The notes under the pieces are model-generated. The model searched no databases, had not been told where the DNA came from, and saw only the letters and a program-made list of their open reading frames with translations. Source: an uncultured Coriobacteriia bacterium (GTDB lineage Bacteria > Actinomycetota > Coriobacteriia > Anaerosomatales > PALSA-660). Taken from it: a stretch of 64,000 nucleotides of DNA. The stretch is from assembly GCA_963701985.1 (NCBI GenBank), contig OY969691.1, forward strand, positions 191,629 to 255,628, read 5' to 3'. The first letter of the stretch is position 1, and each line of letters begins with the position of its first letter. Positions 3,225-47,214 of the stretch are shown one piece after another. Made by a program: the position numbers and the translations under genes.

Positions 3225-3510
3225 GAGCCGATCCTCGGAGCGGCTGCGAGCGGGGAGCGTCCCGGCCGGCGCCGGGCGCTCCCCGCACTTCGTGCGAGGC
3301 GGCGAGGGGACCCGCCCGCGTGGCGGCTCTAGCGCGGTGGATCGCGAGCGGACAAGATCCGAGCGGGAACCGGACAGGCCGGTGTGTCACCGTCGGGCCC
3401 GCGGGGCCGGCGGAAGGCTCGAGACCGGCGACACCGTGCACTATCATGTGCGGCGGCGTGGCAGCTCGGCGGACCGCGTCGGACCTCGCGGAACCAGTGG
3501 AAGGACCTGC

Positions 3511-4820: not shown

Positions 4821-5861
<1,041 letters not shown>

Positions 5862-5907
5862 GCCGCGATCGCCTGCCGGGTGATGCGGCCGAGGGAGTTC
5901 CCCGGAC

Positions 5908-6771: not shown

Positions 6772-7280
6772 GAAAAGCGCTGCCGACCGCGATCGTGCTC
6801 CTCGTCGCGGTGATCCTGCAGACGTCCGTCGTGCCCTATCTCGCCATCTTCGGCGTGGTGCCGAACGTGCTGTTCCTCGTCGTCATCACACTCGGCCTCA
6901 CCGAGGGACCGGCGGCGGGCGGCGTGGCCGGATTCATCGCCGGGCTGCTCATCGACCTGCTCGGCACCGGGGTGGTCGGCCCGATGGCGCTCATCCTGTG
7001 CCTCGTCGGCTACGGCGTCGGTATGCTCCAGGCCAACATGTTCGCGGAGGGGTGGCTGCTGCCCGTCACCACGGTGCTGATAGCCAGCGTCCTCACCGAG
7101 ATCTCCCACGGCGTCGTCCTCGCGGTCCTCCAGCCGGGCACGGACTTCTGGCGGGCGCTGTTCTCGGTCATGCTGCCCGGCGCGATCTACAACACCGCCG
7201 TCGCCGTGCTCGTCTACCCGTGGCTCGGGCGGCTGCTGGGCACCGACCGTCATGTCAAGTCGTTCCGGCGTCTCGCGTGA
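6768..7280 (+). CDS. mreD: Rod-shape-determining protein MreD
   Basis: ATG 6768 overlaps the mreC stop (ATGA). The 170-aa polytopic membrane protein is in the expected mreBCD order. Confidence 0.8.
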   Translation: MRKALPTAIVLLVAVILQTSVVPYLAIFGVVPNVLFLVVITLGLTEGPAAGGVAGFIAGLLIDLLGTGVVGPMALILCLVGYGVGMLQANMFAEGWLLPVTTVLIASVLTEISHGVVLAVLQPGTDFWRALFSVMLPGAIYNTAVAVLVYPWLGRLLGTDRHVKSFRRLA

Positions 7281-18214: not shown

Positions 18215-19321
18215 ATGGCACGCGACAAACGCATCGTGGTCAAGGTCGGGACCTCCACGCTCACGGACGCGGACGGGCACGTCGATCGCGGCTGGCTCGC
18301 GTCGCTCGCCCGTCAGACCGAATCGCTCCGTGAGGACGGCGCGCGCGTCGTGATCGTGAGCTCCGGAGCGATAGCCGCCGGCATGGAGACGATGGACCTC
18401 GCGGAGCGTCCCTGCGAGCTCACCGAACTCCAGGCGACGGCCGCCATCGGGCAGGTCCGGCTGATCGGCACGTACGCCGAGGTCATGTCGGAGCGAGGCA
18501 TCCCGGTCGCCCAAGTGCTGCTGACGCGACACGACACGGGCGACCGGCAGGCCTATCTGTACGCATGCCGCACCCTCGACCGGCTGCTCGGGCTGGATGT
18601 CGTACCGGTGATCAACGAGAACGACACGACGGCGGTCGAGGAGATCCGCTTCGGGGACAACGACACGCTGGCCGCGCTGGTGGGCGTCATGGTGAAGGCC
18701 GACCTGGTCGTGCTCCTCACCGACATCGAGGGGCTCTACGACCGGAACCCGAGCGCGGGGGACGCCGCCGAGCTGCTGGAACGCGTGGATGAGATCACGG
18801 ACGACGTTCTCGCCGCGGCGGGGTGCGCCGGCAGCGAGCACGGCACCGGCGGGATGGTCACGAAGCTGGAGGCCGCCCGGATACTGATGAAGGCCGGCAT
18901 CCCCATGGTCATCTGCGACGGGCGCCGTCCCGACGTGCTGCTCGACGCATGGCGCGGCGAGCCCGTCGGCACCTACTTCGCCGGAGGCCATGGCGAGGTC
19001 GAGGCGCGCAAGCTGTGGATCGCGTTCGCGCGCCGTCCGAAGGGCACTGTCGTCGTGGACGCTGGCGCGAGCGACGCGCTATGCTTGCGCGGCGGCAGCC
19101 TGCTCCCGGCCGGCGTCGTGCGCGTCGAGGGTGTCTTCCGCGCCGGGGACGCCGTGACGGTGGCCGACGAGGCGGGAAGGGCGCTCGCGCGAGGCCTCGC
19201 CGACATCGGGTCCGACGACCTTGCGAGGGTCAAGGGCAGGAAGTCGTCGGAGATCGAGGCGATCTCGCCGGACCTCGCCGGCAAGCAGGTGGTCCATCGC
19301 GACCGTCTCGTCATCCTCTGA
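18215..19321 (+). CDS. proB: Glutamate 5-kinase with PUA domain
   Basis: IVVKVGTSTLTD...VIVSSGAIAAG...NENDTTAVEEIRFGDNDTLAA... plus a C-terminal PUA domain. Confidence 0.95.
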   Translation: MARDKRIVVKVGTSTLTDADGHVDRGWLASLARQTESLREDGARVVIVSSGAIAAGMETMDLAERPCELTELQATAAIGQVRLIGTYAEVMSERGIPVAQVLLTRHDTGDRQAYLYACRTLDRLLGLDVVPVINENDTTAVEEIRFGDNDTLAALVGVMVKADLVVLLTDIEGLYDRNPSAGDAAELLERVDEITDDVLAAAGCAGSEHGTGGMVTKLEAARILMKAGIPMVICDGRRPDVLLDAWRGEPVGTYFAGGHGEVEARKLWIAFARRPKGTVVVDAGASDALCLRGGSLLPAGVVRVEGVFRAGDAVTVADEAGRALARGLADIGSDDLARVKGRKSSEIEAISPDLAGKQVVHRDRLVIL

Positions 19322-28647: not shown

Positions 28648-28723
28648 GGGGCCATAGCTCAGCTGGGAGAGCGCTTGGCTGGCAGCCAAGAGGTCAGGGG
28701 TTCGATCCCCCTTGGCTCCACCA
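28648..28723 (+). tRNA. tRNA-Ala (anticodon GGC), CCA encoded
   Basis: Folded by hand into a cloverleaf. The acceptor stem ggggcca/tggctcc has the G3:U70 alanine identity pair. The anticodon loop is ctGGCag, the T-arm is agggg-ttcgatc-cccct, and the 3' end is a terminal acca. Confidence 0.95.
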
Positions 28724-28733
28724 AAGAGAACTC

Positions 28734-28773
28734 GGTAGGGCCCGGTGAGAACCGGGCCCTACCTGCGTCTTCC
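28734..28773 (+). terminator. Hairpin after the tRNA (possible terminator)
   Basis: A perfect 13-bp stem (ggtagggcccggt / accgggccctacc) with a GAGA loop. The downstream tail tgcgtcttcc is only weakly U-rich. Confidence 0.5.
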
Positions 28774-28889
28774 GGCGTGAGACCCAGGTGGGCTGGAGTC
28801 TGGCGACGACCGGTCCGGCGCTCGTGGCGGCCATGCTCGTTGGACGGGTCTTCCGGTCGTGGTTTGGCGGGCGCCGCTGTGGCGAACAA

Positions 28890-28954
28890 GCGCTTCAACC
28901 TGACGCGCCGAGGCGCGCGCATACTGTTGGCGAATCGGCGCGCAGGTTAAGCGC
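28890..28954 (+). repeat. attC-like structured repeat, copy A
   Basis: GCGCTT[C]AACCTG[A]CGCGCCGA - 23 nt - TCGGCGCGCAGGTTAAGCGC. The 20-bp arms pair perfectly apart from two unpaired bases. GTTAAGC matches GTTRRRY. GTTGG lies 8 nt downstream. Confidence 0.8.
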
Positions 28955-28987
28955 ACCACGTTGGCGCCATCGGCATGGGGGAGACTC

Positions 28988-29608
28988 GTGGCGGAAGGCT
29001 CGGAGCGCCTGAGTTGGCTCGCGCGCTTCTCGATCAGGGTTTCGTCCCCCAGGTCACTGCGGCTTGTGCCGCTCATGCGTAGGTTCTACGCAGTGGACAT
29101 TCAGCCTGCCGGCCGGGTCGACGACTCCGAGCTGCGCGCGGCCGAAAAAGGCACGATTGATGCGCCGCGCTACCTGCTCGCCATGCTGTTCGTTGCTGTG
29201 GGCATCATGGTCATCCTCTTCACTTGGTTGTTCCCGCTGTTGCAGGCACATGGCGAGCTGCTGATCGACCCGACCTTCAATGCGATCGCGGACGCAGCCG
29301 TGCGGATCGGCTGGGGCGAATCGGCCGCAAGTGTGGTCGCAAGCGCCCTGATGCTTGTGGGGATCTTGTTAGCGGGAGTCGTGTGCGCTGCTGTGTTCGT
29401 CACGCCGATATGGCTTCTAGGGCGGGCTTCAGTACGCGCTTGGGGTTCAACGGTCTCGGTAGCACTCGCGCTGATATCTCAACCAGCGCCATCGTCGCTG
29501 ACCGATGCCGCGACGCCGTATCCGCGTACGCGCTACGCACTGAGCAGGATGCGTGACGGCGTGTCCGTGCTGAATATTGGATTGACGCCACCGGAAGTGC
29601 GCGGCTGA
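28988..29608 (+). CDS. Cassette 1: hypothetical membrane protein
   Basis: Part of track ORF 28961..29608. GTG 28988 is chosen because GGGGGAG lies 4 nt upstream, as in the other cassettes. Three to four hydrophobic helices. No family recognised. Confidence 0.5.
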   Translation: MAEGSERLSWLARFSIRVSSPRSLRLVPLMRRFYAVDIQPAGRVDDSELRAAEKGTIDAPRYLLAMLFVAVGIMVILFTWLFPLLQAHGELLIDPTFNAIADAAVRIGWGESAASVVASALMLVGILLAGVVCAAVFVTPIWLLGRASVRAWGSTVSVALALISQPAPSSLTDAATPYPRTRYALSRMRDGVSVLNIGLTPPEVRG

Positions 29609-29620
29609 GCGCGCTAGCGA

Positions 29621-29686
29621 GCGCGTCAACCTGACGCGTCTGTAGAGGCGCACAATGGTGGGGGAATCGGCGTGCAGGTTAAGCGC
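29621..29686 (+). repeat. attC-like structured repeat, copy B
   Basis: GCGCGT[C]AACCTGACGCG...GCGCACAATGGTGGGGGAATCGGCGTGCAGGTTAAGCGC. Starts 12 nt after the cassette 1 stop. Confidence 0.8.
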
Positions 29687-29718
29687 CCAACATTCGGTGG
29701 GAGGACGGGGCACGCAAG

Positions 29719-30024
29719 TTGGCGGTCACCGACTCCAAGGACGAGCTCCTTGCTGACAAGCCCAGCCGTCTTGCCCTCGGCTTGAACATCGGCATCGCCG
29801 TGCTCCTGCTCGGGACTCCGATCATCTTGGTTTATCTCTTTGTCACGGTCGTTCTGGCCGGCGCCTTCCAACAGGCCGGATCGTCGTGGCCTGTCGCAAA
29901 CGCTCTCGGCGGGATCCTCGTCATTGTGCTGGTTGTGTCACGCTACGTGCTGCGCCGAGGGCGCTGGATGCGGCATGGCGCTCCACACCGAACGAGCGCT
30001 TCCAGCGGACGGCGTAGGGTGTGA
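29719..30024 (+). CDS. Cassette 2: small two-TM membrane protein
   Basis: 101-aa ORF starting at TTG, with GGGAGGA 12 nt upstream. Two hydrophobic helices. No family recognised. Confidence 0.5.
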   Translation: MAVTDSKDELLADKPSRLALGLNIGIAVLLLGTPIILVYLFVTVVLAGAFQQAGSSWPVANALGGILVIVLVVSRYVLRRGRWMRHGAPHRTSASSGRRRV

Positions 30025-30061
30025 GCAATGAAGCAGGCGCTGCGGTCCACCGCTGAAGCGC
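29996..30061 (+). repeat. attC-like structured repeat, copy C (stem sequence changed, structure kept)
   Basis: GCGCTT[C]CAGCGG ... CCGCTGAAGCGC. It has the same length (66 bp) and the same bulged C as copy A, but six stem pairs are replaced by compensatory pairs. It overlaps the last 29 nt of cassette 2. Confidence 0.7.
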
Positions 30062-30098
30062 CAGACGCTAGGCGTGATACGCCGGGGGGATGTCGCGC

Positions 30099-30761
30099 AT
30101 GCGAAAGCTTGGGGTCTTAGGAATCGCGCTCGTGGGAGTCTTGCTCCTCATCACCTCTGTGGGCTTCTACTGGCTCCCGATCAGCGTCATCTTCGCCGAC
30201 ATGGGCAGCTATCCTAAGCTGCTCGCCGTGTTTCTCGCGGCTCTTCCTTTCCTTGTCTGTGTCGCCGGAGGTCTCTTCCTGCTGAACCGACGCGACTCTC
30301 TTGCCGAACGATGGTTCCCGGTGTCGGAGTCGCCTTTTGTACTCGCCTCTGACGACCTGCTGCGTGTGGGCCTCGTTCTCATTGGCGCGTACCTGTTCGC
30401 CGAAGCGATTCCCTCGCTCGTCAGCCAACTGACGAGTCCCATCGTCCAGATCGTCCAAATCAACGCACAGGTCGATGCTGGTCTTGGCGCGCCGGATGTC
30501 TGGAGCCAGCTGCTCACCGCCACGCCGAGCATTCTCGCCACCGTCGCGAGACTCGGGATCGGGTGGTTCCTCGTTGCGCGTTCAGGCCGGATCGCGGCGC
30601 GGTTGATCGGCGATTCGTCACCGGTTCAGGGGTCGCCGAACTCAGCGGTCTTGGCTTGCCCGACCTGTGGAGCACCATATGACCTGTCCGAGTACGAGGG
30701 TGGCCTGGTTGAGCCGAGGTGCGCGACGTGCAAGCAGCCACTCGACGTCCCACACGCCTAA
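30099..30761 (+). CDS. Cassette 3: four-TM membrane protein with a C-terminal zinc-ribbon (paralogue family with cassettes 7 and 8)
   Basis: MRKLGVLGIALVG... aligns with the N-termini of 32663 and 33343. LAERWF corresponds to LAEQWFED in the paralogues. The C-terminus reads CPTCGAPYD...CATCKQP. ATG 30090 is an alternative start. Confidence 0.6.
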   Translation: MRKLGVLGIALVGVLLLITSVGFYWLPISVIFADMGSYPKLLAVFLAALPFLVCVAGGLFLLNRRDSLAERWFPVSESPFVLASDDLLRVGLVLIGAYLFAEAIPSLVSQLTSPIVQIVQINAQVDAGLGAPDVWSQLLTATPSILATVARLGIGWFLVARSGRIAARLIGDSSPVQGSPNSAVLACPTCGAPYDLSEYEGGLVEPRCATCKQPLDVPHA

Positions 30762-30765
30762 CAAT

Positions 30766-30826
30766 GGTTCCAACTTCGCGCACAATGGAAGTGGACCAGC
30801 GGTGGGTCGAGCGCAGGACGTCGGGC
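30766..30826 (+). repeat. attC-like repeat, copy D (degenerate, 5' arm shortened)
   Basis: GGTTCCAAC-TTCGCGCACAATGGAAGTGG...GAGCGCAGGACGTCGGG. It keeps CAAC, GCGCACAATGG and GCGCAGG but lacks part of the 5' arm. Confidence 0.55.
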
Positions 30827-30836
30827 AGGGGGCACG

Positions 30837-31256
30837 ATGGGAACAGACGCGGCCACAACTTCCTGGATAGTCAGGCTCATTGGAATCTATGTCGGTATCT
30901 ACGCTGCGGTGTGCGCCGTCGGAGGAGTGCTCGGCATCCAAGCGGCCGGAACTGCCGGACTCGTGATGAGTCTGGCGCTGCTCGTGGTTTCCATCGGCCT
31001 GTTGAGCGGCGCCATCGGGTTGGTCTTGCTCAAAGCCTGGTCCCGATGGGTGGCAGTCGGGTCGCTGATCGCGCTCATAGCGGTGAAGGCCGCCCCATAC
31101 CTGCCGACACTGGCAGGTCTGGGGTTTCCCAAGGGCTTCGTGGCGTTGGCCGTGCTTGCGCCGGCCCTCGCTCTGCCCGCGATCTGCTGTGCATACCTCG
31201 CTTTCGCGAAGCTGGATGTCCTGCGGGCGGCGCCGACCGAGGATCGAGCAGCCTAG
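30837..31256 (+). CDS. Cassette 4: four-TM membrane protein
   Basis: 139-aa ORF with CAGGGGG upstream of the ATG. Hydrophobic throughout. No family recognised. Confidence 0.55.
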   Translation: MGTDAATTSWIVRLIGIYVGIYAAVCAVGGVLGIQAAGTAGLVMSLALLVVSIGLLSGAIGLVLLKAWSRWVAVGSLIALIAVKAAPYLPTLAGLGFPKGFVALAVLAPALALPAICCAYLAFAKLDVLRAAPTEDRAA

Positions 31257-31303
31257 CCCCGGCTGACGACCCTTCGGTGCCGGCGGTTCTCGGATCATGA
31301 CCG

Positions 31304-31378
31304 GCGCGCCAACCTGACGCACCGGAGCGCGCGCATAATGCGGGGAGCAGGCGGCCGGCTTGCGCGCGAGACGTCGGG
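31304..31378 (+). repeat. attC-like repeat, copy E
   Basis: GCGCGC[C]AACCTGACGCACCGGAGCGCGCGCATAATGCGGGGAGCAGG...GGCTTGCGCGCGAGACGTCGGG. The outer stem GCGCGC[C]AA/TTGCGCGC covaries relative to copy A. Confidence 0.65.
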
Positions 31379-31472
31379 TCTGAAGACGCGGCGCTTGAGG
31401 CGGCCGGGCCTGGTCGTCGCCAGGCTCGTCGCCTCGCGTTGCGCGGTACACGTCAGGTAGAGAGAAAGGGTC

Positions 31473-32048
31473 GTGCTCGTGCTTCTCGTTATCCGTTATT
31501 GGGTCTTGCCGGTATCCGCACTGACGTGCGGCGTGTCCTGGGCCGTGATCCGATCGGCCATGCGCGTGCCGGTGCGACGGGCCGCGCTGGAGGCGCTCTT
31601 CGTCGGATATCTGGCCGCGCTGTTCTACGTGGTCTTCTTGCTGCCGAGTGGCCCGAGACCCGATGCCGCGTTGTCCGCTTGGACTTCGGTCAACCTCGTG
31701 CCAGTGCGCACCATCATCGGGATCATCCGGGACAACCCCCGCATGATCGGCTGGCAGATCTTCGGCAATGTGATCCTGTTCATGCCGCTCGGCTTCCTTC
31801 TGCCGGTGCTCAGCACGCGCTTCCGGCGGTTCGCCCTGACAGCGGCCACGGCGCTCTCCGTGTCAGTGAGCATCGAACTCGTCCAACTCGCGATGCTGCT
31901 CATGCTGATCGCACGCAGGTCGGTCGACGTCGACGACGTCATCCTCAACGTGACCGGGGCCTGCGTGGGCTATCTCATCTGGCGGGGCGCGCATGCTCTT
32001 GAGCAGACCTCTGGGCAAGGTCCGGGAGTGCTCGAAGACGCCGACTAG
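31473..32048 (+). CDS. Cassette 5: VanZ-like family membrane protein
   Basis: Contains NLVPVRTI...FGNVILFMPLGFLLP...SVSIELVQL...RRSVDVDDVILNVTGACVGYLIW, the VanZ-like signature. AGAGAAAGGG precedes the GTG. Confidence 0.75.
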   Translation: MLVLLVIRYWVLPVSALTCGVSWAVIRSAMRVPVRRAALEALFVGYLAALFYVVFLLPSGPRPDAALSAWTSVNLVPVRTIIGIIRDNPRMIGWQIFGNVILFMPLGFLLPVLSTRFRRFALTAATALSVSVSIELVQLAMLLMLIARRSVDVDDVILNVTGACVGYLIWRGAHALEQTSGQGPGVLEDAD

Positions 32049-32070
32049 CCTCAGGCGCCTTCCCAAGAAG

Positions 32071-32135
32071 GTCCTTCAACCTCATGAGACCACGTGCGCA
32101 TAATGCGAGGTAGGCGCGCCGCGCAGGCTAAGCGC
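32071..32135 (+). repeat. attC-like repeat, copy F
   Basis: GTCCTT[C]AACCTC...GTGCGCATAATGCGAGGTAGGCGCGCCGCGCAGGCTAAGCGC, with GTTGGAT 8 nt downstream. Confidence 0.7.
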
Positions 32136-32179
32136 CGAGTGTTGGATCGAAGAGTCTCACTCCTAGAATCGGAGGACTC

Positions 32180-32449
32180 GTGGATCTCGCCAAGATGCTG
32201 ATCGTCTCCTTCATCTGCTGCGCGCCTCTGTTCCTGATCCTGGTCATCGTCGCGATCGTTGTCGCGGTCACGCGCTCCAGGCGGAAGGCTGATGAAGCGT
32301 CCGAGCCGTCGGCGGAACAGCAGGCGTCTGCGCCGGCTGGCTGGTATCCGGATCCGATGGCACGTCACGAGTACAGGCAGTGGGATGGCACGCAGTGGAC
32401 GGCGGCCGTCTCGGACAACGGCGTCGTCGGCAGCGATCCTCCGTCGTAG
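32180..32449 (+). CDS. Cassette 6: small membrane-anchored DUF2510-like protein
   Basis: N-terminal TM helix followed by PAGWYPDPMARHEYRQWDGTQWT (the DUF2510 GWYPDP motif). GGAGGA precedes the GTG. Confidence 0.65.
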   Translation: MDLAKMLIVSFICCAPLFLILVIVAIVVAVTRSRRKADEASEPSAEQQASAPAGWYPDPMARHEYRQWDGTQWTAAVSDNGVVGSDPPS

Positions 32450-32650
32450 GCGCAGCATCGCGGCCGCACGTTGGACCGGATCGAGGGGTTCAGCGGATGA
32501 GGCGGATCGGCGCAGGCTTCGCGACGACGATCGCTCAGGGTGTGGCGCGCGAGCGCGCATACTGGTGGGGGATAGGCGCGCAGGTTAGGCACCACGCGTT
32601 GACCGCGATCGCCGGGTTCTTCCGGTAGGCGCAACACGTTCGGCGCGACT
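32450..32650 (+). repeat. Composite of at least three partial attC-like repeat copies (region G)
   Basis: Three 3'-arm fragments are visible: GGCGCAG...GCACGTTGGAC; ATCGGCGCAGGCTTCGCG; and a full centre plus 3' arm, GCGCGCATACTGGTGGGGGATAGGCGCGCAGGTTAGGCACC (canonical GTTAGGC at 32584-32590). TAGGCGCAACACGTTCGG follows. No intact 5' CAAC arm is present. Confidence 0.65.
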
Positions 32651-32662
32651 CAAGGGGGAGTT

Positions 32663-33235
32663 GTGAGAAAGGTCGGCGTGCTCAGCATTGCGCTTGCAGG
32701 GTTGCTGACCCTCGGTTCGGCTGCCTTCACCTTGAGCGTGGCGATCGCCTACCTTGATACAGCTGTGACCGGCTCTTCAGCATGGCCGCTCGTAGTAGCG
32801 ATGTTGCTGGTGATTCCTGTTGTCCTGCTGGCCGCAGTTGGGCGTTGGCTGATCGTCCACCGTGAGCGCTTGGCCGAGCAGTGGTTCGAGGATGGCGTTC
32901 CGCCAGACGTCGCATTGGGCGCCACCGCGCTGACGGGGGCGCTGCTGGGCCTTGCTGGTATCTGGCTCTCCGTTAACGGCGTCGGCGGCCTGTTCGTCAC
33001 CGCGGCCGATGCGGTCCGGTACCTTCAGCAGTCGCAGGCACCGTTCGGTGCGAGCCCCGAGGCAGAGGTGATCCGGCAGGTTCTGCACATCCAGAAGCTG
33101 TCCGCTCGCATGGTGCTGCAGGCGTTCGCGTTGCAAGCACCCGGCTTCACCTCAGATCTTGTGAGGCTCGGCCTTGGACTCATCGTGCTCCTCAGGCGCA
33201 CATCCATCGCCGGATGGCTCACGCGGTGCAGGTGA
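32663..33235 (+). CDS. Cassette 7: four-TM membrane protein, paralogue of 33343 and 30099
   Basis: 190 aa. MRKVGVLSIALAG...WPLVVAMLLVIPVVLLAAVGRWLIVHRERLAEQWFED...RRTSIAGWLTR aligns along its length with cassette 8. Confidence 0.65.
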   Translation: MRKVGVLSIALAGLLTLGSAAFTLSVAIAYLDTAVTGSSAWPLVVAMLLVIPVVLLAAVGRWLIVHRERLAEQWFEDGVPPDVALGATALTGALLGLAGIWLSVNGVGGLFVTAADAVRYLQQSQAPFGASPEAEVIRQVLHIQKLSARMVLQAFALQAPGFTSDLVRLGLGLIVLLRRTSIAGWLTRCR

Positions 33236-33247
33236 TGGCGCCTGATA

Positions 33248-33323
33248 GCGCGTCGAGCCGACGCGACTTGGAAGGCGCACAATGTGGGGGAGTCGGGGCG
33301 CCATGTGCGCACCGACCGTTGGG
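33248..33323 (+). repeat. attC-like repeat, copy H (both core ends degenerate)
   Basis: GCGCGTCGAGCCGACGCG...AGGCGCACAATGTGGGGGAGTCGGGGCGCCATGTGCGCACCGACCGTTGGGC. The centre is nearly identical to copy B, but CAAC and GTTAAGC are lost. Confidence 0.6.
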
Positions 33324-33342
33324 CGCCGATCGAGGGGGAGCG

Positions 33343-33927
33343 GTGAGGAAGCTCGGCGTGCTCGGCATCACGATCGTAGGGTTGATGATTCTGGCCTCGG
33401 CTGGCGTCACCTTGATGTTGCCGCTCATCCTGATCGGCGAGATCGTCAATGGCTCTTCACCATGGCCGCTGGTCGTGGTCGCGATTCTGCTTGGGACGAT
33501 TCCGTTCGCCTTGTTGGTAGCACTGGGCCGCTGGTTGATCGTCCACCGCCAGTGTTTGGCCGAGCAGTGGTTCGAGGATGACGATTCGCTGGACGTCGCA
33601 TTCGGGGGCACCGCGCTGATCGGGGCGCTGCTCGGCGTCGCCGGTGTCTGGCTCACTGTCAACGGCATCAGCGGTGTGTTCGGCGATGTGGCAGGCGCGA
33701 TCCAACAGGTTCCGCAGGCCCAGAGGACATTCGGTCACATGATGCTGCGGGCGTTCGTCTGGCAAGCACCTGCCTTCATTTCAACCCTGGTTACGCTCGG
33801 ATTTGGACTGCTTCTGCTCTTCAGGCGCACATCCATCGCCGGGTGGCTCACGCGCGGTGAAGGTGGTGGCTCCCAAGAAGGCCCTCAGCTCGATGCTCGC
33901 GAGCACGCGCCTGCTATCGGGGAGTAG
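33343..33927 (+). CDS. Cassette 8: four-TM membrane protein, paralogue of 32663
   Basis: GTG 33343 follows GAGGGGGAG, inside track ORF 33214..33927. VRKLGVLGITIVG...WPLVVVAILLG...GRWLIVHRQCLAEQWFED...RRTSIAGWLTR. Confidence 0.65.
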   Translation: MRKLGVLGITIVGLMILASAGVTLMLPLILIGEIVNGSSPWPLVVVAILLGTIPFALLVALGRWLIVHRQCLAEQWFEDDDSLDVAFGGTALIGALLGVAGVWLTVNGISGVFGDVAGAIQQVPQAQRTFGHMMLRAFVWQAPAFISTLVTLGFGLLLLFRRTSIAGWLTRGEGGGSQEGPQLDAREHAPAIGE

Positions 33928-33941
33928 ACGCGTGAGCAGTA

Positions 33942-34002
33942 GTGCTTCCAGCGATGCGAAGGGGGCACGCTGCGCGGCCTGACCGAGAGCTCCATTCGGC
34001 GG
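33942..34002 (+). repeat. attC-like repeat, copy I (strongly degenerate)
   Basis: GTGCTTCCAGCGATGCGAAGGGGGCACGCTGCGCGG...CCATTCGGCGG. It shares GCTTCCAGCG with copy C and CATTCGG with copy B. Confidence 0.35.
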
Positions 34003-34015
34003 TCCGGTCGGTGGC

Positions 34016-34180
34016 ATGATGGGCGGGGCGGCCGTTGGATCGTTGCTGCTCTTCGGTCTCGTCCTTCCATCGGCCTTACTGCTCAACGCGTTGAATCCGT
34101 TCGGTCTGTCCTTCGGACCGGGCTTGCTTGAGCCGTTCTGGACCGCGGTCGCGGCTGCGGTGTTATCCCGGCCAGCCTAG
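34016..34180 (+). CDS. Cassette 9 (tentative): 54-aa hydrophobic peptide
   Basis: Read by hand and not in the ORF track (under 60 aa): MMGGAAVGSLLLFGLVLPSALLLNALNPFGLSFGPGLLEPFWTAVAAAVLSRPA. It fills the gap between repeats I and J. Confidence 0.3.
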   Translation: MMGGAAVGSLLLFGLVLPSALLLNALNPFGLSFGPGLLEPFWTAVAAAVLSRPA

Positions 34181-34240
34181 CGTCATGCCGCAGTGAACAC
34201 GTGCGTATCGAGCAGAACCCGGGAGCTACACTGGTCTTCG

Positions 34241-34300
34241 AGCGCGCGGCGTGTGCGGTGCGCGCAATGTTGGGGCTGGTGCAGGTGAGCGGCACGACCC
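34241..34300 (+). repeat. attC-like repeat, copy J (centre plus 3' arm)
   Basis: GTGCGCGCAATGTTGGGGCTGGTGCAGGTGAGCGGCAC compares with the consensus GCGCACAATGGTGGGGGAATCGGCGTGCAGGTTAAGCGC. Confidence 0.55.
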
Positions 34301-34330
34301 ATGCAACGGCGCGTGGAGGCTGGTGGATGA

Positions 34331-34876
34331 GTGTACGGCGTTACTGCCAAGCGGCTGGGCGTACTCGTCCTCGTGATCGCCGCGGCTAGGCTTGCCGAGA
34401 ACTTGAGCGTCGTGTGGCTGCTTCCCAACACGCTCATCGCGGGCGCTCTCGTGGCACTCGCCCTGCTCAACGCCTGGCTGCTGTACCGCTTCGGATCGGT
34501 TGCATCGGGCACTCCCGCGGAGTCGCTGTTCACAGCCGCGATTGTTTCGATCTTCGTCGTCCCGATCGCAGAAATTGCTCTCGGTGAGATCGGTTCTCCT
34601 TGGCTTCCCGCGATTCTTTCCGCGGTGCCGGCGTTGCTGATGTGGGCGGGCCTGCTTCGGGCTCGTTGGGTCGCGCCGTGGATCCCATGGCTCGGAGTGG
34701 GCTCGGCGGTGTTCGCCGCAGCCGCAAGCTCCCTTCACGGCGTCTTGCCGAATGTTCTGGGCCAGGGACTCGCTTGGCTCGAGTATGCTTGGGCGATCCT
34801 GGTCCTAGTTTCCCTGGGACGCTCTCTCTTAGGGCTCTCCGATCGAGCAGGTCCGGACACCGCTCCCGCGAGCTAG
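34331..34876 (+). CDS. Cassette 10: polytopic membrane protein
   Basis: 181 aa with five to six hydrophobic helices. The N-terminus AKRLGVLVLVIAAA weakly echoes the MRKLGVLGIAL family. GGAGG precedes the GTG. Confidence 0.55.
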   Translation: MYGVTAKRLGVLVLVIAAARLAENLSVVWLLPNTLIAGALVALALLNAWLLYRFGSVASGTPAESLFTAAIVSIFVVPIAEIALGEIGSPWLPAILSAVPALLMWAGLLRARWVAPWIPWLGVGSAVFAAAASSLHGVLPNVLGQGLAWLEYAWAILVLVSLGRSLLGLSDRAGPDTAPAS

Positions 34877-34900
34877 GACGCGCCGGCAAGCCTGCCTGAG

Positions 34901-35100
34901 CGGTTCAACCTGGCGCGCCAAAGCGCGCGCATGCCGATGTCGGAGGCCGCATCCGCCCGGATGGCGCCCTTAGGCACCGGCGCGGGCGCGCCGCAGGCCG
35001 TGTTCTGCTCGCGCTCGGGATCGCGCTCATCGTGCCGGCGCGTGTCGTGATGCGGCCAGCGCCGCGATGACGGGGGATGGGCGCGCAGGTCACGCGCGCC
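34901..35100 (+). repeat. attC-like repeat, copy K (terminal copy, split by about 135 nt in the loop)
   Basis: The 5' half is CGGTTCAACCTGGCGCGCCAAAGCGCGCGCATGCC (34901-34935). The 3' half is GGGGGATGGGCGCGCAGGTCACGCGCGCC (35072-35100). An internal CCTTAGGCACC lies at about 34968. Confidence 0.6.
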
Positions 35101-35119
35101 ACGGCTCCGGAGAAACGAC

Positions 35120-35140
35120 GAGGTCAGGACCCCTGACCTC
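35120..35140 (+). other. Perfect 9-bp hairpin closing the cassette array
   Basis: gaggtcagg-acc-cctgacctc. There is no U-tract on the + strand and only a weak one (gtcgtttctcc) on the - strand. Function unknown. Confidence 0.3.
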
Positions 35141-35220
35141 TACTGACACCATACCACGATCCGGCCGAAAGAACGAGTCCTGTATTCGCCGCGCGAGGGG
35201 CGTATAACACCGTATCCGAG

Positions 35221-35820
35221 GTGATGTTCGTGATCGTTCCATCGTGGCACGACCCTGCCCGGATCCGGCTCGCGAAGGCCGTCGACGAACTCGGATCCTG
35301 CAACCATGAGATCGAGCGCTACGGCCTGTCGCTCGCGATCCAGGACATCCAGGCCCTGGTCGCGGGCCGGCTCGAGTCGCTCGAGTCGAGCGACCGCGTC
35401 GAGTTCGGCGGCAGCGGTGTGGTCAGGGAGATCGTCCTGGCGTTCGCCGGTTCGCCCTTCGTGTCGCAGGAGAATCTCGTGCCGACGCTGCTCGAGCTCC
35501 AAGAGCTCTTCTACGAGTTCAAGAACGAGTCGCTCGAGCAGATCCCCGACGACGACCTGATCGTGAAGATGCGGTCGCTCTTCGACGACCCCGCGCAAGG
35601 GGACCTCGGCTACCTCGAGGAGGCGCTCTTCGATGGCCTCGCGCGCCGCGTCCGCGAGGAGGCTGCCGGATCGATCGCCGAGGACGATGCGGCCGACCCC
35701 GACGCCGACCGCGCCGCCGGCGACGCGGCGAGGCTCGCGCAACACCGCTTCGACGTGTCGAGCTGGGTCGACGACGCATACGCACCGGGTTGGGAGGGTT
35801 CGAGCTGGCTGGACGAGTAG
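35221..35820 (+). CDS. Conserved hypothetical protein (acidic; first gene of a pair)
   Basis: 199-aa ORF with coding-like composition. ...RVEFGGSGVVREIVLAFAGSPFVSQENLVPTLLELQELFYEFKNES... resembles an uncharacterised family I recall from Firmicutes. The family name is not asserted. Confidence 0.6.
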   Translation: MMFVIVPSWHDPARIRLAKAVDELGSCNHEIERYGLSLAIQDIQALVAGRLESLESSDRVEFGGSGVVREIVLAFAGSPFVSQENLVPTLLELQELFYEFKNESLEQIPDDDLIVKMRSLFDDPAQGDLGYLEEALFDGLARRVREEAAGSIAEDDAADPDADRAAGDAARLAQHRFDVSSWVDDAYAPGWEGSSWLDE

Positions 35821-35831
35821 AGGAGCGGGGC

Positions 35832-36740
35832 GTGCCCGATGAGGACGCGCTGGCCCGGGCCGAGTCGCCGGATGCGGGCCAGGGGCTCGTGACACCCGGG
35901 GACATCGCCGCGTTCCAAGCACGGCTCCTGCGCCTGCTCGAGCGGCGCACCGCCATCTACGCGATGGGTGACAGTACGTCCGTCCCCACGCACGTCGCGG
36001 TCGACCTGTTGCGCTCGGTCTGCTTCGTGCTGGGCATCGATCCCGACGCGCCGGAGATCCCGCCCCGGCTGCTCGACGTCGACCTGGAAGACGAGTACCG
36101 GCGCCGACTCGCCGAGATCGAGCACAAGGTCGAGCTGACCGGTGAGCTCTGGCGCGAGGTGGTCGCGACGATCCCGCCGATTCCGAGCATCGCGCTGCGG
36201 GACACGCTCATCGCCATCGGAGACTTCCCGCGGCACTACGACTTCCGCTCGATGGCGCACGACATCCCCATCGTGTTCGACTACCCGCTCTGCCGGCCGG
36301 TGCCGGAGACGCTTCTGGGTGTGGACTACATCAACGAGTACCTGAGGCGGCTGTTCGTGGAAGCCGACTTCCTGCGGCGCTTCGACGTCGACAGGTGCAT
36401 CCGCGTGCTCGAGCACAGCAGCCCGGACTTCGAGGACCTGCTCGTGAACCTCTACGAGCCGGTCGCGACGAACGCGCTCGGACGGGCGCTTGTCGGCAAG
36501 GATCCCGGCCCGTTGCGGATCTCCGGGGACGAGCGCGCCGAGATCGCGGCGCGCTTGGCACCGTTGGCAGCGGAGCAGCGAGAGCACGCGATGCGCGAGG
36601 CCGTCCTAGCCGCGTGTGACTCCTTCGGCATCGACGACGATGACGCCGTACAGTACGTGTGCGCGTTGGTGCCCGAACTGTTGCCGCGCATCGACGTCGC
36701 GCTGGAGCGGGGCGACCTGCGGGCCGTGTTCGTGGACTGA
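35832..36740 (+). CDS. Conserved hypothetical protein (second gene of the pair)
   Basis: GTG 35832 follows GAGGAGCGGGG, inside track ORF 35790..36740. 302 aa, no motif recognised. Confidence 0.6.
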   Translation: MPDEDALARAESPDAGQGLVTPGDIAAFQARLLRLLERRTAIYAMGDSTSVPTHVAVDLLRSVCFVLGIDPDAPEIPPRLLDVDLEDEYRRRLAEIEHKVELTGELWREVVATIPPIPSIALRDTLIAIGDFPRHYDFRSMAHDIPIVFDYPLCRPVPETLLGVDYINEYLRRLFVEADFLRRFDVDRCIRVLEHSSPDFEDLLVNLYEPVATNALGRALVGKDPGPLRISGDERAEIAARLAPLAAEQREHAMREAVLAACDSFGIDDDDAVQYVCALVPELLPRIDVALERGDLRAVFVD

Positions 36741-37509: not shown

Positions 37510-38022
37510 GTGATCCTCCCCAAAGAGCGCGACCCGCGCTTCATCACCATCCGCCGTGGAGGGACGCTCACGGACGCGAACCATCGGCTCCTGGCTTCGT
37601 GGGCGGCGGCGTGCGCGGAGCACGTCCTGCACCTCTTCGAGTCGGTACAGCCCTCGGACCCGCGGCCCCGCCGGACGATCGCGAGCACTCGGGCGTGGGT
37701 GCGCGGCGAGATGACGATGTCTCAGGCCCGCGCGGCGGCCGGTGCCAACGCCGCGGCGCGAGAGCTGACCGGAGCCGCTCGGTTCGCCGCATACGCCGCC
37801 GGGCAGGCGGTCGCGGTGACGCATGTCCCCGCGCACGAGCTCGGTGCCGCGGCCTACGCGATCAAGGCTGTGCGCGCAGCCGCACCCGATGGCGAGAGCG
37901 AGAGCGCCGGCCGGAGCGAGTGCCGTTGGCAGCGCGAACAGCTTCCCGATGAGATCCGCGCGCTGGTGCTGGACGACGAACGGTTGCGGAACGGGATCTG
38001 CTGGTCGGCGTTCGACTGCTGA
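37510..38022 (+). CDS. Conserved hypothetical protein (possibly immunity-protein-like)
   Basis: 170 aa. RFITIRRGGTLTD...WAAACAEHVL...AHELGAAAYAIKAVRAA...CWSAFDC. I recall close homologues in actinomycetes annotated as hypothetical or immunity-like. The function is not established. Confidence 0.55.
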   Translation: MILPKERDPRFITIRRGGTLTDANHRLLASWAAACAEHVLHLFESVQPSDPRPRRTIASTRAWVRGEMTMSQARAAAGANAAARELTGAARFAAYAAGQAVAVTHVPAHELGAAAYAIKAVRAAAPDGESESAGRSECRWQREQLPDEIRALVLDDERLRNGICWSAFDC

Positions 38023-43823: not shown

Positions 43824-44011
43824 CCGCGCGGCCGGCCGGATGCGGTCGGGATGCCGTTCGGAAGCGGTCGGGATGTCGTCCGCTCGCGGTCGACTCCCGG
43901 ACCGGCGCCCGGCGCACGATCGCCTTGCTCGAAGGAAGCAGCCGCGGCCAGCGCGCTCGGCCGTGATCGTCGCGAACCGGAAGACCCCCTCGCCGGTGTG
44001 AGGGGGTCTTC

Positions 44012-44677
44012 GTGTTCCGCGAGATGCGTGAGTGGGCCGAGGAGCTGTCGTGCCGGCTCGGGCTCGACACATGGAGCCCGGCCGCGCGACGTCTCGGTGC
44101 CGGGATCGCCATCGTCCTGGTGGCGCTGGCGGCCTGGCGTTGGTGCGGGGGAGGCGCGGCCCCGTCGGGCGTCGCGCCGATGCCGGCGGCGGCCGGGACC
44201 AGTGTCGAGGCCACCGGAGCGCGGCCGGCGGGTCCCGGGACGGCGACCGTGGACGTCGTGGGGGCGGTCCGGCATCCGGGCGTGTATCGCCTCACGGCCG
44301 GATCGCGCGTCGACGACGCCGTGAGCGCGGCCGGCGGCATGCTGGGCAGCGCCGACGCCGCGGCCGTGAACCTGGCGCGCGTTCTCAACGACGGCGAGCA
44401 GATCGTCGTGCCGGTGAAGGGAACGGCGGCGACCGGAGCTCAGGCGGCCGGTGCGGCCGCGTCGGGCGGCGCCGCGGCCGGCGGCGTGGTCGATCTCAAC
44501 ACCGCGACGGTCGAGCAGCTGGACGCGCTGCCGGGCGTGGGGCCGGCCACGGCCAAGAAGATCGTCGACGACCGCACCCGCAACGGCCCGTTCCGCACGG
44601 TGGACGACCTGCTACGCGTGCCCGGGATCGGGCCGAAGAAGCTGGACGCGCTGAAGGACCTCGTGACGGCGAGATGA
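44012..44677 (+). CDS. comEA: Competence protein ComEA (SLBB plus helix-hairpin-helix DNA-binding domains)
   Basis: An N-terminal TM helix is followed by VDVVGAVRHPGVYRLTAGSRVDDAV (SLBB) and the C-terminal DLNTATVEQLDALPGVGPATAKKIVDDR...VPGIGPKKL. Confidence 0.85.
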   Translation: MFREMREWAEELSCRLGLDTWSPAARRLGAGIAIVLVALAAWRWCGGGAAPSGVAPMPAAAGTSVEATGARPAGPGTATVDVVGAVRHPGVYRLTAGSRVDDAVSAAGGMLGSADAAAVNLARVLNDGEQIVVPVKGTAATGAQAAGAAASGGAAAGGVVDLNTATVEQLDALPGVGPATAKKIVDDRTRNGPFRTVDDLLRVPGIGPKKLDALKDLVTAR

Positions 44678-47214
44678 GGGCCCTCTCCCGGGTCGCGGCG
44701 GACTCCGCGGTGCCGCGCCCGTCGGTCTCCCCGTTGTTCTGGGCCGGCGTCGCGTGTTGGGCCGGAGGTTGGGTGGGAACGGAAGCCGCGCTGCGCGCGT
44801 GGTGTACGGGGACGCGGAGCGCGGTCGAGGTCGCGTGGGCCGTCGTGGCGACGGCGACGGCCTGCGGGGTGTTCGCGCGCCGCTCGCGACTCCGGCTCCC
44901 GGCCGCGGCGTTCGCCCTGGGCCTGTGCGTGGCGCTCCTGCATGGCGCGTGGGTGACCGCGAGCGCCACGCGGGCGGCCTCGGCTGGCCCGGCCGAGTGG
45001 CGCGCCGTGGTCGCGGCGGACCCGGTGGCGGGCCCGACGGGCGCGACGGTGGCGCTGCGCCTCCGCGACGGTCCCGCGGCGGGCGCCGTGGCGGTCGTCG
45101 GTTGGCCGGCCGGAGAGCCGCTCCCGGAGTACGGGCGGCTCGTGCGCGTTCGGGCGCGGCTGCGCGTCGTGGACGGCTCGAAGCCGTCGGGCCGCGCCGA
45201 GTTCCGGAGCGGCCGTCTCCTGCGCGGCACGCCCTGGCGGGTGGCCGAGGATGGATGGACGCCGGGTCCTCTGGGTCGGGTGGCGTGCTGGCGTGCGGCG
45301 GCTCTGGGCCGTCTTCGGGGGCTGCGTGGGGACGGTCCGGCGCTCGTGGCGTCGATGCTGTTCGGCGATCGAACGCGCACCAGCGGGTCGCCGGTCGAGG
45401 AGGACGCGAAGGCGGCCGGTGTGGCGTGGCTGCTGAACGCGTCCGGGCTGCATCTAGCGGCGCTCCTTCTCCTGGCGGACCGGATCGCGGCGTTCGTCGG
45501 GCTCGGCCGCAGGGGCAGAGCCGGCGCGTCGATCGGCGTCGGGGCGGTCGTGTGCGCGGCGGCGGGAGCCCGGATCGCGCTCGTGCGCGCGGCGCTCGTC
45601 GCGGCCGCGGCCGTCCTGGCGCGACTCGCCGGACGAAGACGCGACGTGACCGCGGCGGTCGGGGTGGCGGTGCTGGTCCTGGTCTGTCTGGACCCGGCGG
45701 CCGCGGAGGACGTCGGCCTGCTGCTGGGCGTCGTCGCGGTGACGGCGATAGCGCTGTTCGGGAGGCTCGCCGCCGAGTGGCTGCGGCCGATCGCCGGACG
45801 GGCGCTCGCGACCGCGATGGCCGCGTCGGTGGTCGCGCAGGTCGCGGTGGCGCCGATCTCCGCGTCGCTCTTCGGGGCGCTGAACGCACTGGCGCCCGCC
45901 TCGCTCGTGGTTTCCGCGCCTCTCGCGGCGACGGCGGTGGGGCTCGGCGCGTCGGGAGCCGTCGCGGGCGGACGGCTCGGCGCGCCACTCACCGCGCTGG
46001 CGTGCATGTTCGCCCAGGGCGCGGCGACCGTGTGGCACGTGGCGGCCGGCCTCCCGGGGGCCGTCGTGCCCGTCGCCTCGGTACCGTGGTGGGCTTGGGC
46101 GGCCTGGGTGACGGTGCCGGCCCTCGCGTGGTGGCGCTGGCCATCACCTCGTCGCGGACCGCGTCTTCGCGCGATCGTCGCGGTCGTCGTGACGCTCGTC
46201 GCGATCCTGGCGCTCATCCCGCGTCCCGCCGGTCCCGAGATCGTCGTGATGGACGTCGGACAGGGCGACTCCATCCTCGTGCGCGACAGCGGCCACGCGA
46301 TGCTCGTGGACACGGGGCCCGACCCGGTGACGCTGCGTCGCGCCCTGTCTCGTAACGGCGTACGCGCGGTGGACGGTGTCGTCCTCACGCACATCCACGC
46401 CGACCACGTCGGAGGCATCTCGGGACTGCGCGGGGTGGTCGCGGAGCCGGCGTGGATCGGTGTGCCCGACGTGGACGATCGCGGGGTCGACCGCTTGGCG
46501 GCCGCGTGCGCCGGCCGCGCGGGGACCGTGATCAGGCTCCGTCGCGGCATGACCTGGCGCGTGGGCGAGACCACGGTACGTGTGCTGTGGCCTCAGGGAG
46601 GTGAGCGGCAGCTCCAGGCCAACGACACGAGCGTGGTGCTCTTGCTCGCGCGGCACGGCGCGGCGGTGGCGCTGCTGCTCGGCGATGCGGAACAGCGCGC
46701 GCAGCTCGGGGCACTCGATGCGTTCTCCGGGAGGGTGCCGATCATGAAGGCCGCGCATCACGGCAGCGTGAACGGCGTCGTGCCGGAGGCGCTGTCCGCA
46801 TGGTGCCCGCGGGTCGTGCTCATCAGCTGCGGCGCCGGCAATCCGTTCGGTCACCCGCACCGGGCCGCGCTGGAGGCGTACGGCCGGATCGGCGCCCAGA
46901 TCCACCGCACGGACCTCGAGGGCGATCTTGTGTGGGCGGTCGACGCGACCGGCGTGTGCGACAATCGCACGGTCCGGACGGGCGCCGCGGGCGCCCCCGT
47001 GGGAAGGGCCGCATGGCCGCGAGCGATCTCAGCGATCTCAAGCCCGTCTACCTCATCTACGGCTCCGAGGAGCTCCTGCTGGAGAACGCGGTCCGTCGGC
47101 TGCGGGACCGTCTGGCCGCGGTGGCGGACCTCGATTTCAACATGGAGACCTTCGACGGCGAGTCGGCCTCCGCCGACGACATCGTCAACGCCGCCAACAC
47201 CATGCCGTTCATGA
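44674..47214 (+). CDS. comEC: Competence protein ComEC/Rec2 (DUF4131, competence and metallo-beta-lactamase domains); 3' end uncertain
   Basis: ATG 44674 overlaps the comEA stop. A polytopic membrane region is followed by the MBL motif VLTHIHADHVGG...AAHHGS. The frame stays open about 200 nt into holA, so the true stop may be lost. Confidence 0.75.
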   Translation: MRALSRVAADSAVPRPSVSPLFWAGVACWAGGWVGTEAALRAWCTGTRSAVEVAWAVVATATACGVFARRSRLRLPAAAFALGLCVALLHGAWVTASATRAASAGPAEWRAVVAADPVAGPTGATVALRLRDGPAAGAVAVVGWPAGEPLPEYGRLVRVRARLRVVDGSKPSGRAEFRSGRLLRGTPWRVAEDGWTPGPLGRVACWRAAALGRLRGLRGDGPALVASMLFGDRTRTSGSPVEEDAKAAGVAWLLNASGLHLAALLLLADRIAAFVGLGRRGRAGASIGVGAVVCAAAGARIALVRAALVAAAAVLARLAGRRRDVTAAVGVAVLVLVCLDPAAAEDVGLLLGVVAVTAIALFGRLAAEWLRPIAGRALATAMAASVVAQVAVAPISASLFGALNALAPASLVVSAPLAATAVGLGASGAVAGGRLGAPLTALACMFAQGAATVWHVAAGLPGAVVPVASVPWWAWAAWVTVPALAWWRWPSPRRGPRLRAIVAVVVTLVAILALIPRPAGPEIVVMDVGQGDSILVRDSGHAMLVDTGPDPVTLRRALSRNGVRAVDGVVLTHIHADHVGGISGLRGVVAEPAWIGVPDVDDRGVDRLAAACAGRAGTVIRLRRGMTWRVGETTVRVLWPQGGERQLQANDTSVVLLLARHGAAVALLLGDAEQRAQLGALDAFSGRVPIMKAAHHGSVNGVVPEALSAWCPRVVLISCGAGNPFGHPHRAALEAYGRIGAQIHRTDLEGDLVWAVDATGVCDNRTVRTGAAGAPVGRAAWPRAISAISSPSTSSTAPRSSCWRTRSVGCGTVWPRWRTSISTWRPSTASRPPPTTSSTPPTPCRS

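Follow-up and report, generated by a model that had tools for sequence, protein, structure and literature searches.

The repeats between positions 28881 and 35117 of the DNA analyzed here (64 kb of the 1.84-Mb contig OY969691.1 of an uncultured Coriobacteriia bacterium, hereafter the window) are best read as the attC sites of an integron cassette array without an adjacent integrase, i.e., a cluster of attC sites lacking an integron integrase (CALIN), in the chromosome of a Coriobacteriia-class actinobacterium. We give this reading, made from sequence evidence, a probability of about 0.88. It is carried by the anatomy of the sites, by covariation in all helices across a wider family of the repeat, by integron integrases (intI) beside sister arrays and by cassette boundaries that fall at the R' boxes. 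The element is a textbook integron cassette array with no new mechanism, and it is notable for its host. It comprises about 11 cassettes, with ten small co-oriented open reading frames (ORFs) on the + strand, most of which have a predicted membrane protein as product; a VanZ protein is encoded by one and a DUF2510 domain by another. Each ORF is preceded by a short leader with a ribosome-binding motif and without a sigma-70-type promoter match. One copy of the repeat, an imperfect palindrome of ~86 nt, lies 3' of each small ORF, between neighbours, throughout 28.9-35.1 kb. No IntI-like sequence was found in the 64-kb window, either by tblastn with two IntIs of the family or by a motif search, and therefore the array is filed as a CALIN and not as a complete integron.

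An attC site is defined (Nivina 2016, PMC5027507) by R' and R'' boxes (RYYYAAC/GTTRRRY), by bottom-strand extrahelical bases G16 and T23/24 with a required 6-bp stem between the two, by a central spacer that is unpaired, by a terminal structure that varies and by a size of 57-141 bp. On the + strand, copy A reads GGCGAAC-AA-GCGCTT-C-AACCTG-A-CGCGCC-(27-nt loop)-GGCGCG-CAGGTT-AAGCGC-ACCAC-GTTGGCG. The bulged C is at position 16 and the bulged A at position 23, counted from the 5' RYYYAAC-like box, with 6 bp between them. Top-strand C16 and A23 correspond to bottom-strand G16 and T23, and the recombinogenic bottom strand of attC A would be the - strand. Both bases are present in window sites A, B, C, E, F and H. 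The lengths fall within the published range, both in the window (71-87 nt) and in the wider family (82-100 nt, median 86).

A first-pass annotation of this DNA was right in its essentials and had described three copies that keep one structure with different sequences. Its pairings were verified in the sequence: in copy A, GCGCTT[C]AACCTG (28890-28902) pairs with CAGGTTAAGCGC (28943-28954), in copy C, GCGCTT[C]CAGCGG (29996-30008) pairs with CCGCTGAAGCGC (30050-30061), and in copy E, GCGCGC[C]AA pairs with TTGCGCGC, the change from TT/AA to GC/GC being compensated. The lengths given for A and C (65 and 66 nt) are right, and so is the unpaired C at one shared position in A, B, C, E and F, to which H can be added. 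Other parts need correction. What had been called the outer stem is the L-box helix and not the outer end of the element, since an AAC-ending box (R'') lies 2 nt 5' of it and a GTT-starting box (R') 5 nt 3'. The conserved C holds as a bulge, but the second bulged base, the A located 6 bp further in, had been overlooked. Between A and C all changes in the inner stem are indeed compensated, but they affect three of the six pairs (positions 1, 3 and 5) and not all six; between A and E there are two compensated pairs. Finally, the array continues beyond the part described in that annotation, as far as 35117, and both the degenerate state of most copies and the lack of a nearby integrase had been missed.

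The window copies belong to a larger family. Metagenome contigs were scanned with the pattern TCAACCTGACGC-N6-20-GCGCAYAMTG, which returned 82 loci, about 60 of them clearly the same element with both R boxes and about 20 chance matches in coding DNA that were removed by a 3'-arm filter and by the model described below. A covariance model (CM), R1, was built from 49 copies and gave 295 matches in the 82 loci (380 kb), organized as one-strand arrays with a spacing of 300-900 bp, the longest with ~25 sites in the 9.9-kb contig L077. In the window the same model found nine sites (A, B, E, C, H, K2, F, part of G, and D), all on the + strand, within 28878-35117 and 375-770 bp apart. Position 16 is a C in 141 of 142 family sites and position 23 an A in 122 of 142. 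In an alignment of 135 distinct family sites (A3), 93.5% of the cells are paired, vs. 20-42% in controls with the 3' partner displaced by 1-3 columns, and the L and stem helix reaches 97.5%. Double changes are seen in 13 of the 25 pairs (219 cells), and none of 500 shuffles attained the observed pairing or covariation score. Changes of the same kind appear in array neighbours that had not been selected by the pattern, such as CCTG/CAGG to CTTG/CAAG or AACCTG/CAGGTT to CACCTG/CAGGTG, and GCGCGT/ACGCGC to GCGCTT/AAGCGC or CCGCAT/ATGCGG. The data support that structure, and not primary sequence, is conserved in the repeat family.

A glimpse at how the units have moved is provided by the cassette boundaries, a test that is independent of the way in which the sites were selected for the alignments. 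In integrons, every R' box contributes its six final bases to the cassette that lies downstream, and therefore an R'' box should complement the R' box of the upstream site and not that of its own site. We scored pairing at the four variable R'' bases in 113 non-redundant cassettes. R''(n) against the upstream R'(n-1) gave a mean of 3.48 paired bases out of 4, with 78 of the 113 cassettes perfect, vs. 2.38 against the adjacent R'(n) and 2.08 +/- 0.08 against random R' boxes; the upstream box won over the adjacent one in 79 cases and lost in 10 (sign test, p=1.9e-14). Counted by hand, window sites B, C and D follow the same rule even where their AAC/GTT triplets have since mutated (upstream vs. 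own R', out of 4: B 3 vs. 1, C 4 vs. 2, D 4 vs. 3). We know of no other class of repeats that predicts complementarity between R'' and the upstream R'. This pairing shows units that have apparently moved as circles cut at the R' box (G|TT).

The content of the cassettes agrees with this origin. ORFs 3, 7 and 8 code for paralogous membrane proteins that share an N-terminal RK(L/V)GVLxI motif, while the other ORFs are mutually unrelated. The homology of 7 and 8 begins at the R' box and ends with the ORF, and the sites downstream of them differ. Homologues of ORF 3 with 31-42% identity were detected in the metagenomic array contigs L077 (37%, a cassette ORF), L066 and L035; ORFs 7 and 8 had each other as their only relatives, with none outside this genome, among 5.8 billion proteins.

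A link to integrons comes from the sister arrays. Contig L093 encodes, at 6285-7265, an integron integrase (TIGR02249, 488 bits for a cut-off of 265) whose alignment with VchIntIA (PDB 2A3V, E=6e-94) runs over the full length and takes in the IntI-specific insertion ALERKYPNA..WRWQWVFP. A second one is found in L036 (4290-5240; TIGR02249, 468 bits), and tblastn revealed another complete intI in L089 and fragments at the contig ends of L020 and L068. In all five of these scan contigs (three with a complete gene) intI is located 5' of the array and on the same strand, and the same is true of L097. The order tRNA-Pro(GGG), intI, array, all on one strand, is seen in both L036 (tRNA at 5399-5475) and L089 (tRNA at 5889-5965), and the window has tRNA-Ala(GGC) followed by the array on the same strand, without intI. 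The spacer between this tRNA and site A, compared with the attI regions, showed no similarity to the sequences upstream of other arrays. Having intI on the cassette strand (L093, L036, L089, L068 and L097) is the layout of inverted-integrase integrons, a type recognised in the literature; no description of a tRNA next to such an array was found in the literature searched.

If these repeats work as attC sites do elsewhere, the bottom strand of each one (here the - strand) would fold into an imperfect hairpin in which R'' pairs with R' and L'' with L', while the two bases of the R''-L'' arm without a partner (G16 and T23) would flip out. An integron integrase would recognise the shape of this hairpin and cut where A meets C in the bottom-strand R' AAC, which is G|TT on the top strand, so that an ORF together with its downstream site could leave as a circle and re-insert. 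That the folded hairpin is under selection as in attC sites, as the first-pass annotation had proposed, is supported by the agreement among bulges, boxes, covariation, intI-linked sister arrays and G|TT boundaries.

Several observations weigh against this interpretation or against parts of it. The hairpin is the minimum free energy (MFE) fold in just two of the ten window copies, A and C, short of the majority of copies that the first-pass annotation had set as its own check. In copy A this holds on both strands (z = -5.2 for the top and -4.2 for the bottom) with all 18 expected pairs, and in copy C on the top strand only. Copies B, E, F and H keep 12-17 of the 18 pairs, with an MFE that is another fold (in B, E and H a local hairpin inside the 5' arm is favoured over the full one), and folding D, F, G, I and J alone as DNA gave nothing significant. 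Among family members from the metagenomes the hairpin (at least 15 of 18 pairs) is the MFE in 92-98 of 166 sites. There is an asymmetry in the unpaired central spacer, with 2 nt vs. 5 nt where 5-6 nt per arm are expected, because the L helix extends outward; the 2-nt spacer is AA in 133 of 142 family sites, and the distance of 8 nt from AAC to the first bulge is canonical nonetheless. The fourth position is G/C (CGAAC/GTTCG) in half of the R boxes of the family, outside the strict consensus RYYYAAC/GTTRRRY. The alignments themselves favour structure, A3 having been fitted to the model and A2 chosen with a pattern in which the 5' inner stem is kept constant.

Accepting the attC reading, the most probable state of the window array is that of a relic in decay, its function being lost, given that no intI was found in 64 kb, that most cleavage triplets are mutated, that only A and C prefer the hairpin and that three or four sites survive as fragments. 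The GTT triplet persists in 5 of 10 window R' boxes vs. 131 of 148 family sites (p=0.005), and AAC in 3 of 8 window R'' boxes vs. 131 of 142 (p=0.0003). The 5' arm of site G is incomplete, I and J can hardly be recognised and K is composite. A further point against is that we infer the relic from an intI search that spans the 64-kb window of a 1.84-Mb contig. The array could instead still be active, as a satellite store from which an integron integrase, encoded at another place on the 1.84-Mb chromosome, would excise and shuffle cassettes in trans. Site A, fully canonical with 88.9 bits and 18/18 pairs in the MFE, would fit such a role, as would the GTT retained in the R' boxes of F, G and H and in the additional R' box that follows G; CALINs in genomes that also have an integron at another location have been discussed (Cury 2016; Neron 2022), and arrays next to intI also have low-scoring sites (26-33 bits in L093). 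We nevertheless find this activity in trans doubtful, for the proportion of mutated cleavage triplets is significantly above that of the family, G, I, J and K are fragmentary, and the array was identical in two independent sequencing runs; also, none of the best 120 of more than 8000 IntI homologues was on the source contig, which is weak evidence.

Outside integrons, the repeat might be a lineage-specific extragenic palindrome, similar to repetitive extragenic palindromic sequences (REP) or miniature inverted-repeat transposable elements (MITE), or an RNA element such as a terminator or a 5' leader, merely resembling attC. The repeats are intergenic, their central motif GCGCAYAMTG..GGGGGA is better conserved than the stems in the window, and the alternative local hairpins that B, E and H have within the 5' arm could be accommodated in such a scheme. 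It does not account for the integrases beside the sister arrays, and complementarity of R'' with the upstream and not the adjacent R' is predicted by no REP or terminator model. Besides, the hairpins have no T-tract on their 3' side, no sigma-70-like promoters accompany them, there is no Rfam match, and in unselected neighbouring sites the loop sequence varies and the stems covary. All this makes the palindrome or RNA element highly improbable. The reading that one gene-plus-repeat unit was recently duplicated in tandem and then drifted, which the paralogy of cassettes 3, 7 and 8 might suggest and which the first-pass annotation had already argued against, has next to no standing, being contradicted by the mutually unrelated remaining ORFs, by repeats that differ by compensated changes and by the limits of the 7/8 homology.

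Two more specific identities were tried and rejected. A promoter within the repeat (CTGACG-N16-TAnnnT) was discarded, as a consensus scan gave no sigma-70-like site in 28.6-35.3 kb and the hexamers are inconsistent among copies. Known RNA families were discarded as well, Rfam having matched only the tRNA at its gathering and E-value thresholds; Rfam has no attC family.

The comparison with known systems helps to place the array. For the attC of class 1 integrons we used an aadA7-type site, which has the same register (GTCTAAC AATTC GTT C16 AAGCCG A23); 1962 plasmid records contain the 60-mer at 99% identity or more, a result that confirms the sequence itself and not its assignment to the cassette. 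Both follow the arrangement R''-L''...L'-R' and share TT[C]AA in the L box, top-strand C16 and A23 with 6-bp spacing, and AAC 8 nt 5' of the bulge. The site of the window is longer (86 vs. 60 nt, with a loop of ~27 nt), its spacer is 2 vs. 5 nt instead of 5 vs. 6, with an L helix that extends 6 bp outward from the bulge, the distance from bulge to GTT is 11 nt instead of 9 (the 3' arm is 2 nt longer), and the top-strand loop is G-rich.

Sedentary chromosomal integrons, such as the Vibrio cholerae superintegron with its Vibrio cholerae repeats (VCRs), are similar in having a lineage-specific family of highly similar attC sites, long arrays (~25 sites in 10 kb in L077) and mostly ORFan cassettes. 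As in 25 of 30 such integrons (Loot 2017), the attC bottom strand would lie on the leading-strand template, judging from a GC skew that is positive on the + strand. They differ in phylum and in site sequence, and the window copy has no integrase. Among CALINs as delimited by IntegronFinder (Cury 2016; Neron 2022), the array matches in having at least two attC sites in the space of a few kb, in lacking a nearby intI, and in its small co-oriented ORFs mostly without known function; its size of ~11 sites is reported for a minority of CALINs. It departs from them in its Coriobacteriia-class host and in the visible decay of many sites.

The setting of the array is that of a core chromosome. The window has a G+C content of ~70% and a GC skew that is positive along the + strand throughout, the strand that carries most genes, among them those for a group-3-like NiFe hydrogenase and RsbU-type phosphatases, mreB, pbp2, rodA, rne, obgE, proB, proA and rsfS. 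The G+C falls to 64-66% over the ~6.5 kb located 3' of tRNA-Ala(GGC). All named relatives of the window ObgE (67-80% identity) are labelled Coriobacteriia, Anaerosomatales or Actinobacteria bacterium HGW-Actinobacteria-6, and six of the 11 nearest relatives of the flanking DUF6323 protein are labelled likewise, the others being four Eubacteriales and one Syntrophothermus. Cultivated Anaerosomatales have genomes of 1.84-2.1 Mb with 66.6-67.7% G+C, and one of them has a group 3b hydrogenase, which is compatible with the window.

IntI homologues have been named by NCBI from Coriobacteriia and Anaerosomatales metagenome-assembled genomes (MAGs); one such homologue lies on a 185-kb contig, with a co-oriented related attC after it. 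Whether Actinomycetota of the Coriobacteriia/Anaerosomatales type carry native sedentary integrons, with a tRNA-adjacent co-oriented intI, attC sites of ~86 nt and dozens of ORFan cassettes, is in our judgement an evenly balanced question. For Actinobacteria, surveys of complete genomes (Cury 2016; Neron 2022) gave no complete integron, one In0 and few CALINs. In permafrost-soil MAGs of Actinomycetota, integrons were described as being in 'virtual absence' (Nat Microbiol 2026). The gap is regarded as unexplained in these surveys, and an unexplained barrier to integron establishment in Actinomycetota has been postulated. Our literature search returned no paper linking integrons with Coriobacteriia, Anaerosomatales or OPB41. 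Should the family be native, the window would represent the end state of one of these integrons after integrase loss. If the link to the lineage holds, Actinomycetota would not be closed to integrons, some 270 homogeneous sites together with several cognate integrases would be available for the study of attC recognition in a high-GC Gram-positive background, and the window would provide a natural example of array decay following integrase loss.

Table 1. Coordinates of the repeats, the cassette ORFs and the adjoining features in the window (CM, bit score or E-value with model R1; box changes are given from the canonical triplet).
Feature	Position	Strand	Remarks
tRNA-Ala(GGC)	28648..28723	+	Directly 5' of the array; ARAGORN, Rfam
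Hairpin	28734-28763		3' of tRNA-Ala(GGC)
attC A	28881..28966	+	Sole fully canonical window site; CM 88.9 bits, E=1e-28
Cassette ORF 1	28988..29608	+	Membrane protein, no Pfam match; 33% identity to an ORF in array contig L048
attC B	29612..29698	+	CM 72.6 bits; C16 and A23 present; L helix with one G.A mismatch; R'' CGCTAGC (AAC to AGC), R' ATTCGGT (GTT to ATT)
Cassette ORF 2	29719..30024	+	101-aa membrane protein; 3' end overlaps attC C
attC C	29987..30073	+	CM 38.0 bits; inner stem CAGCGG/CCGCTG; R'' ACCGAAC, R' GCTAGGC (GTT to GCT); variant also found in L062
Cassette ORF 3	30099..30761	+	Membrane protein with zinc-ribbon-like C-terminal end; TAA stop within R'' of attC D
attC D	30756..30826	+	Short, degenerate; CM 14.5 bits, E=0.02; R'' GCCTAAC (canonical), R' GTCGGGC
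Cassette ORF 4	30837..31256	+	139-aa membrane protein
attC E	31295..31379	+	CM 38.2 bits; R'' TCATGAC, R' GTCGGGT; outer stem GCGCGC/GCGCGC
Cassette ORF 5	31473..32048	+	VanZ family; Pfam PF04892, E=5e-26
attC F	32062..32147	+	CM 18.0 bits; C16 and A23 present; R'' CCCAAGA (degenerate), R' GTTGGAT
Cassette ORF 6	32180..32449	+	One transmembrane helix and DUF2510 domain; Pfam PF10708, E=1.5e-9
attC remnants	32495..32644	+	3'-arm fragment at 32510-32527; repeat-family evidence
Site G	32540-32604	+	5' arm partly deleted; R' GTTGACC; CM partial match, 17.3 bits
Second R'-like box	32638-32644	+	GTTCGGC; start of the homology between paralogous cassettes 7 and 8
Cassette ORF 7	32663..33235	+	Membrane protein
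attC H	33240..33324	+	CM 29.2 bits; C16 and A23 present; inner stem degenerate; R' GTTGGGC
Cassette ORF 8	33343..33927	+	Paralogue of ORF 7 (~51% amino-acid identity)
Relic I	33875..33955	+	5' part like site F in the alignment; no CM match
Cassette ORF 9	34016..34180	+	54 aa
Relic J	34215..34300	+	Central motif and 3' arm visible by eye; no CM match
Cassette ORF 10	34331..34876	+	181-aa membrane protein
Site K (composite)	34891..35117	+	5' half at 34891-34941 with C16 and G23, then site K2
Site K2	35027-35117	+	Full-length, degenerate; CM 27.1 bits; R' GGCTCCG; bulged C absent
DUF6323 and DUF6179 genes	35230..36740	+	Pfam

The last attC of the window is followed by a DUF6323-DUF6179 gene pair (35230-36740). 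In contig L006, from a MAG labelled Coriobacteriia, the same pair (1400-3494) is a cassette bounded by attC sites, in which the downstream site has R'' GGCCTAAC, exactly complementary to R' GTTAGGCC of the upstream site; this sister array has at least nine sites, with exact R''/R' complements of 8-9 nt. Because the pair is a cassette in L006 and follows the last attC here, the window pair may have been the last, two-gene cassette, whose own attC would have been lost, an assignment that we consider uncertain. A search of genome contigs with the DUF6323 protein as query gave 11 loci, none of them with a tRNA or with conserved gene order; among the DUF6323 loci, L006 and L011 carry related attC sites.

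The non-coding stretch of ~110 nt between the last attC and the start codon of DUF6323 (35110-35225), which contains a hairpin at 35120-35140, is conserved 5' of DUF6323 homologues from distant relatives. Identity is 87.5% over 72 nt in L006 and 81% over 108 nt in L010, and the stretch is also conserved in L011, L008, L004 and L003; it had no match in Rfam. It may be an undescribed cis-regulatory leader.

A few other observations in the same regions can be recorded. Contig L011, from a MAG labelled Actinobacteria bacterium HGW-Actinobacteria-6, has at 2374-2445 an attC-like site of 72 nt with a 4-nt loop (TGCTAAC..GGGCTT[C]CACCTG[A]CTCGC...GTTATAC), ~5 kb 5' of its DUF6323 homologue. In the window, a putative immunity protein that is Imm5-like (PF21805, E=2.5e-38) is encoded at 37510-38022, ~2.4 kb 3' of the array and after the DUF6323, DUF6179 and YiiD_C genes. 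Model R1 also gave a match of 17.4 bits (E ~0.002) at 18999-19092 on the - strand within proB, a GC-rich palindrome that is probably due to chance. Lastly, the region 44000-46000 has an unusually high G+C (77%), a GC skew of 0.13 and a negative AT skew, and overlaps an ORF of 1060 aa (44032-47214).

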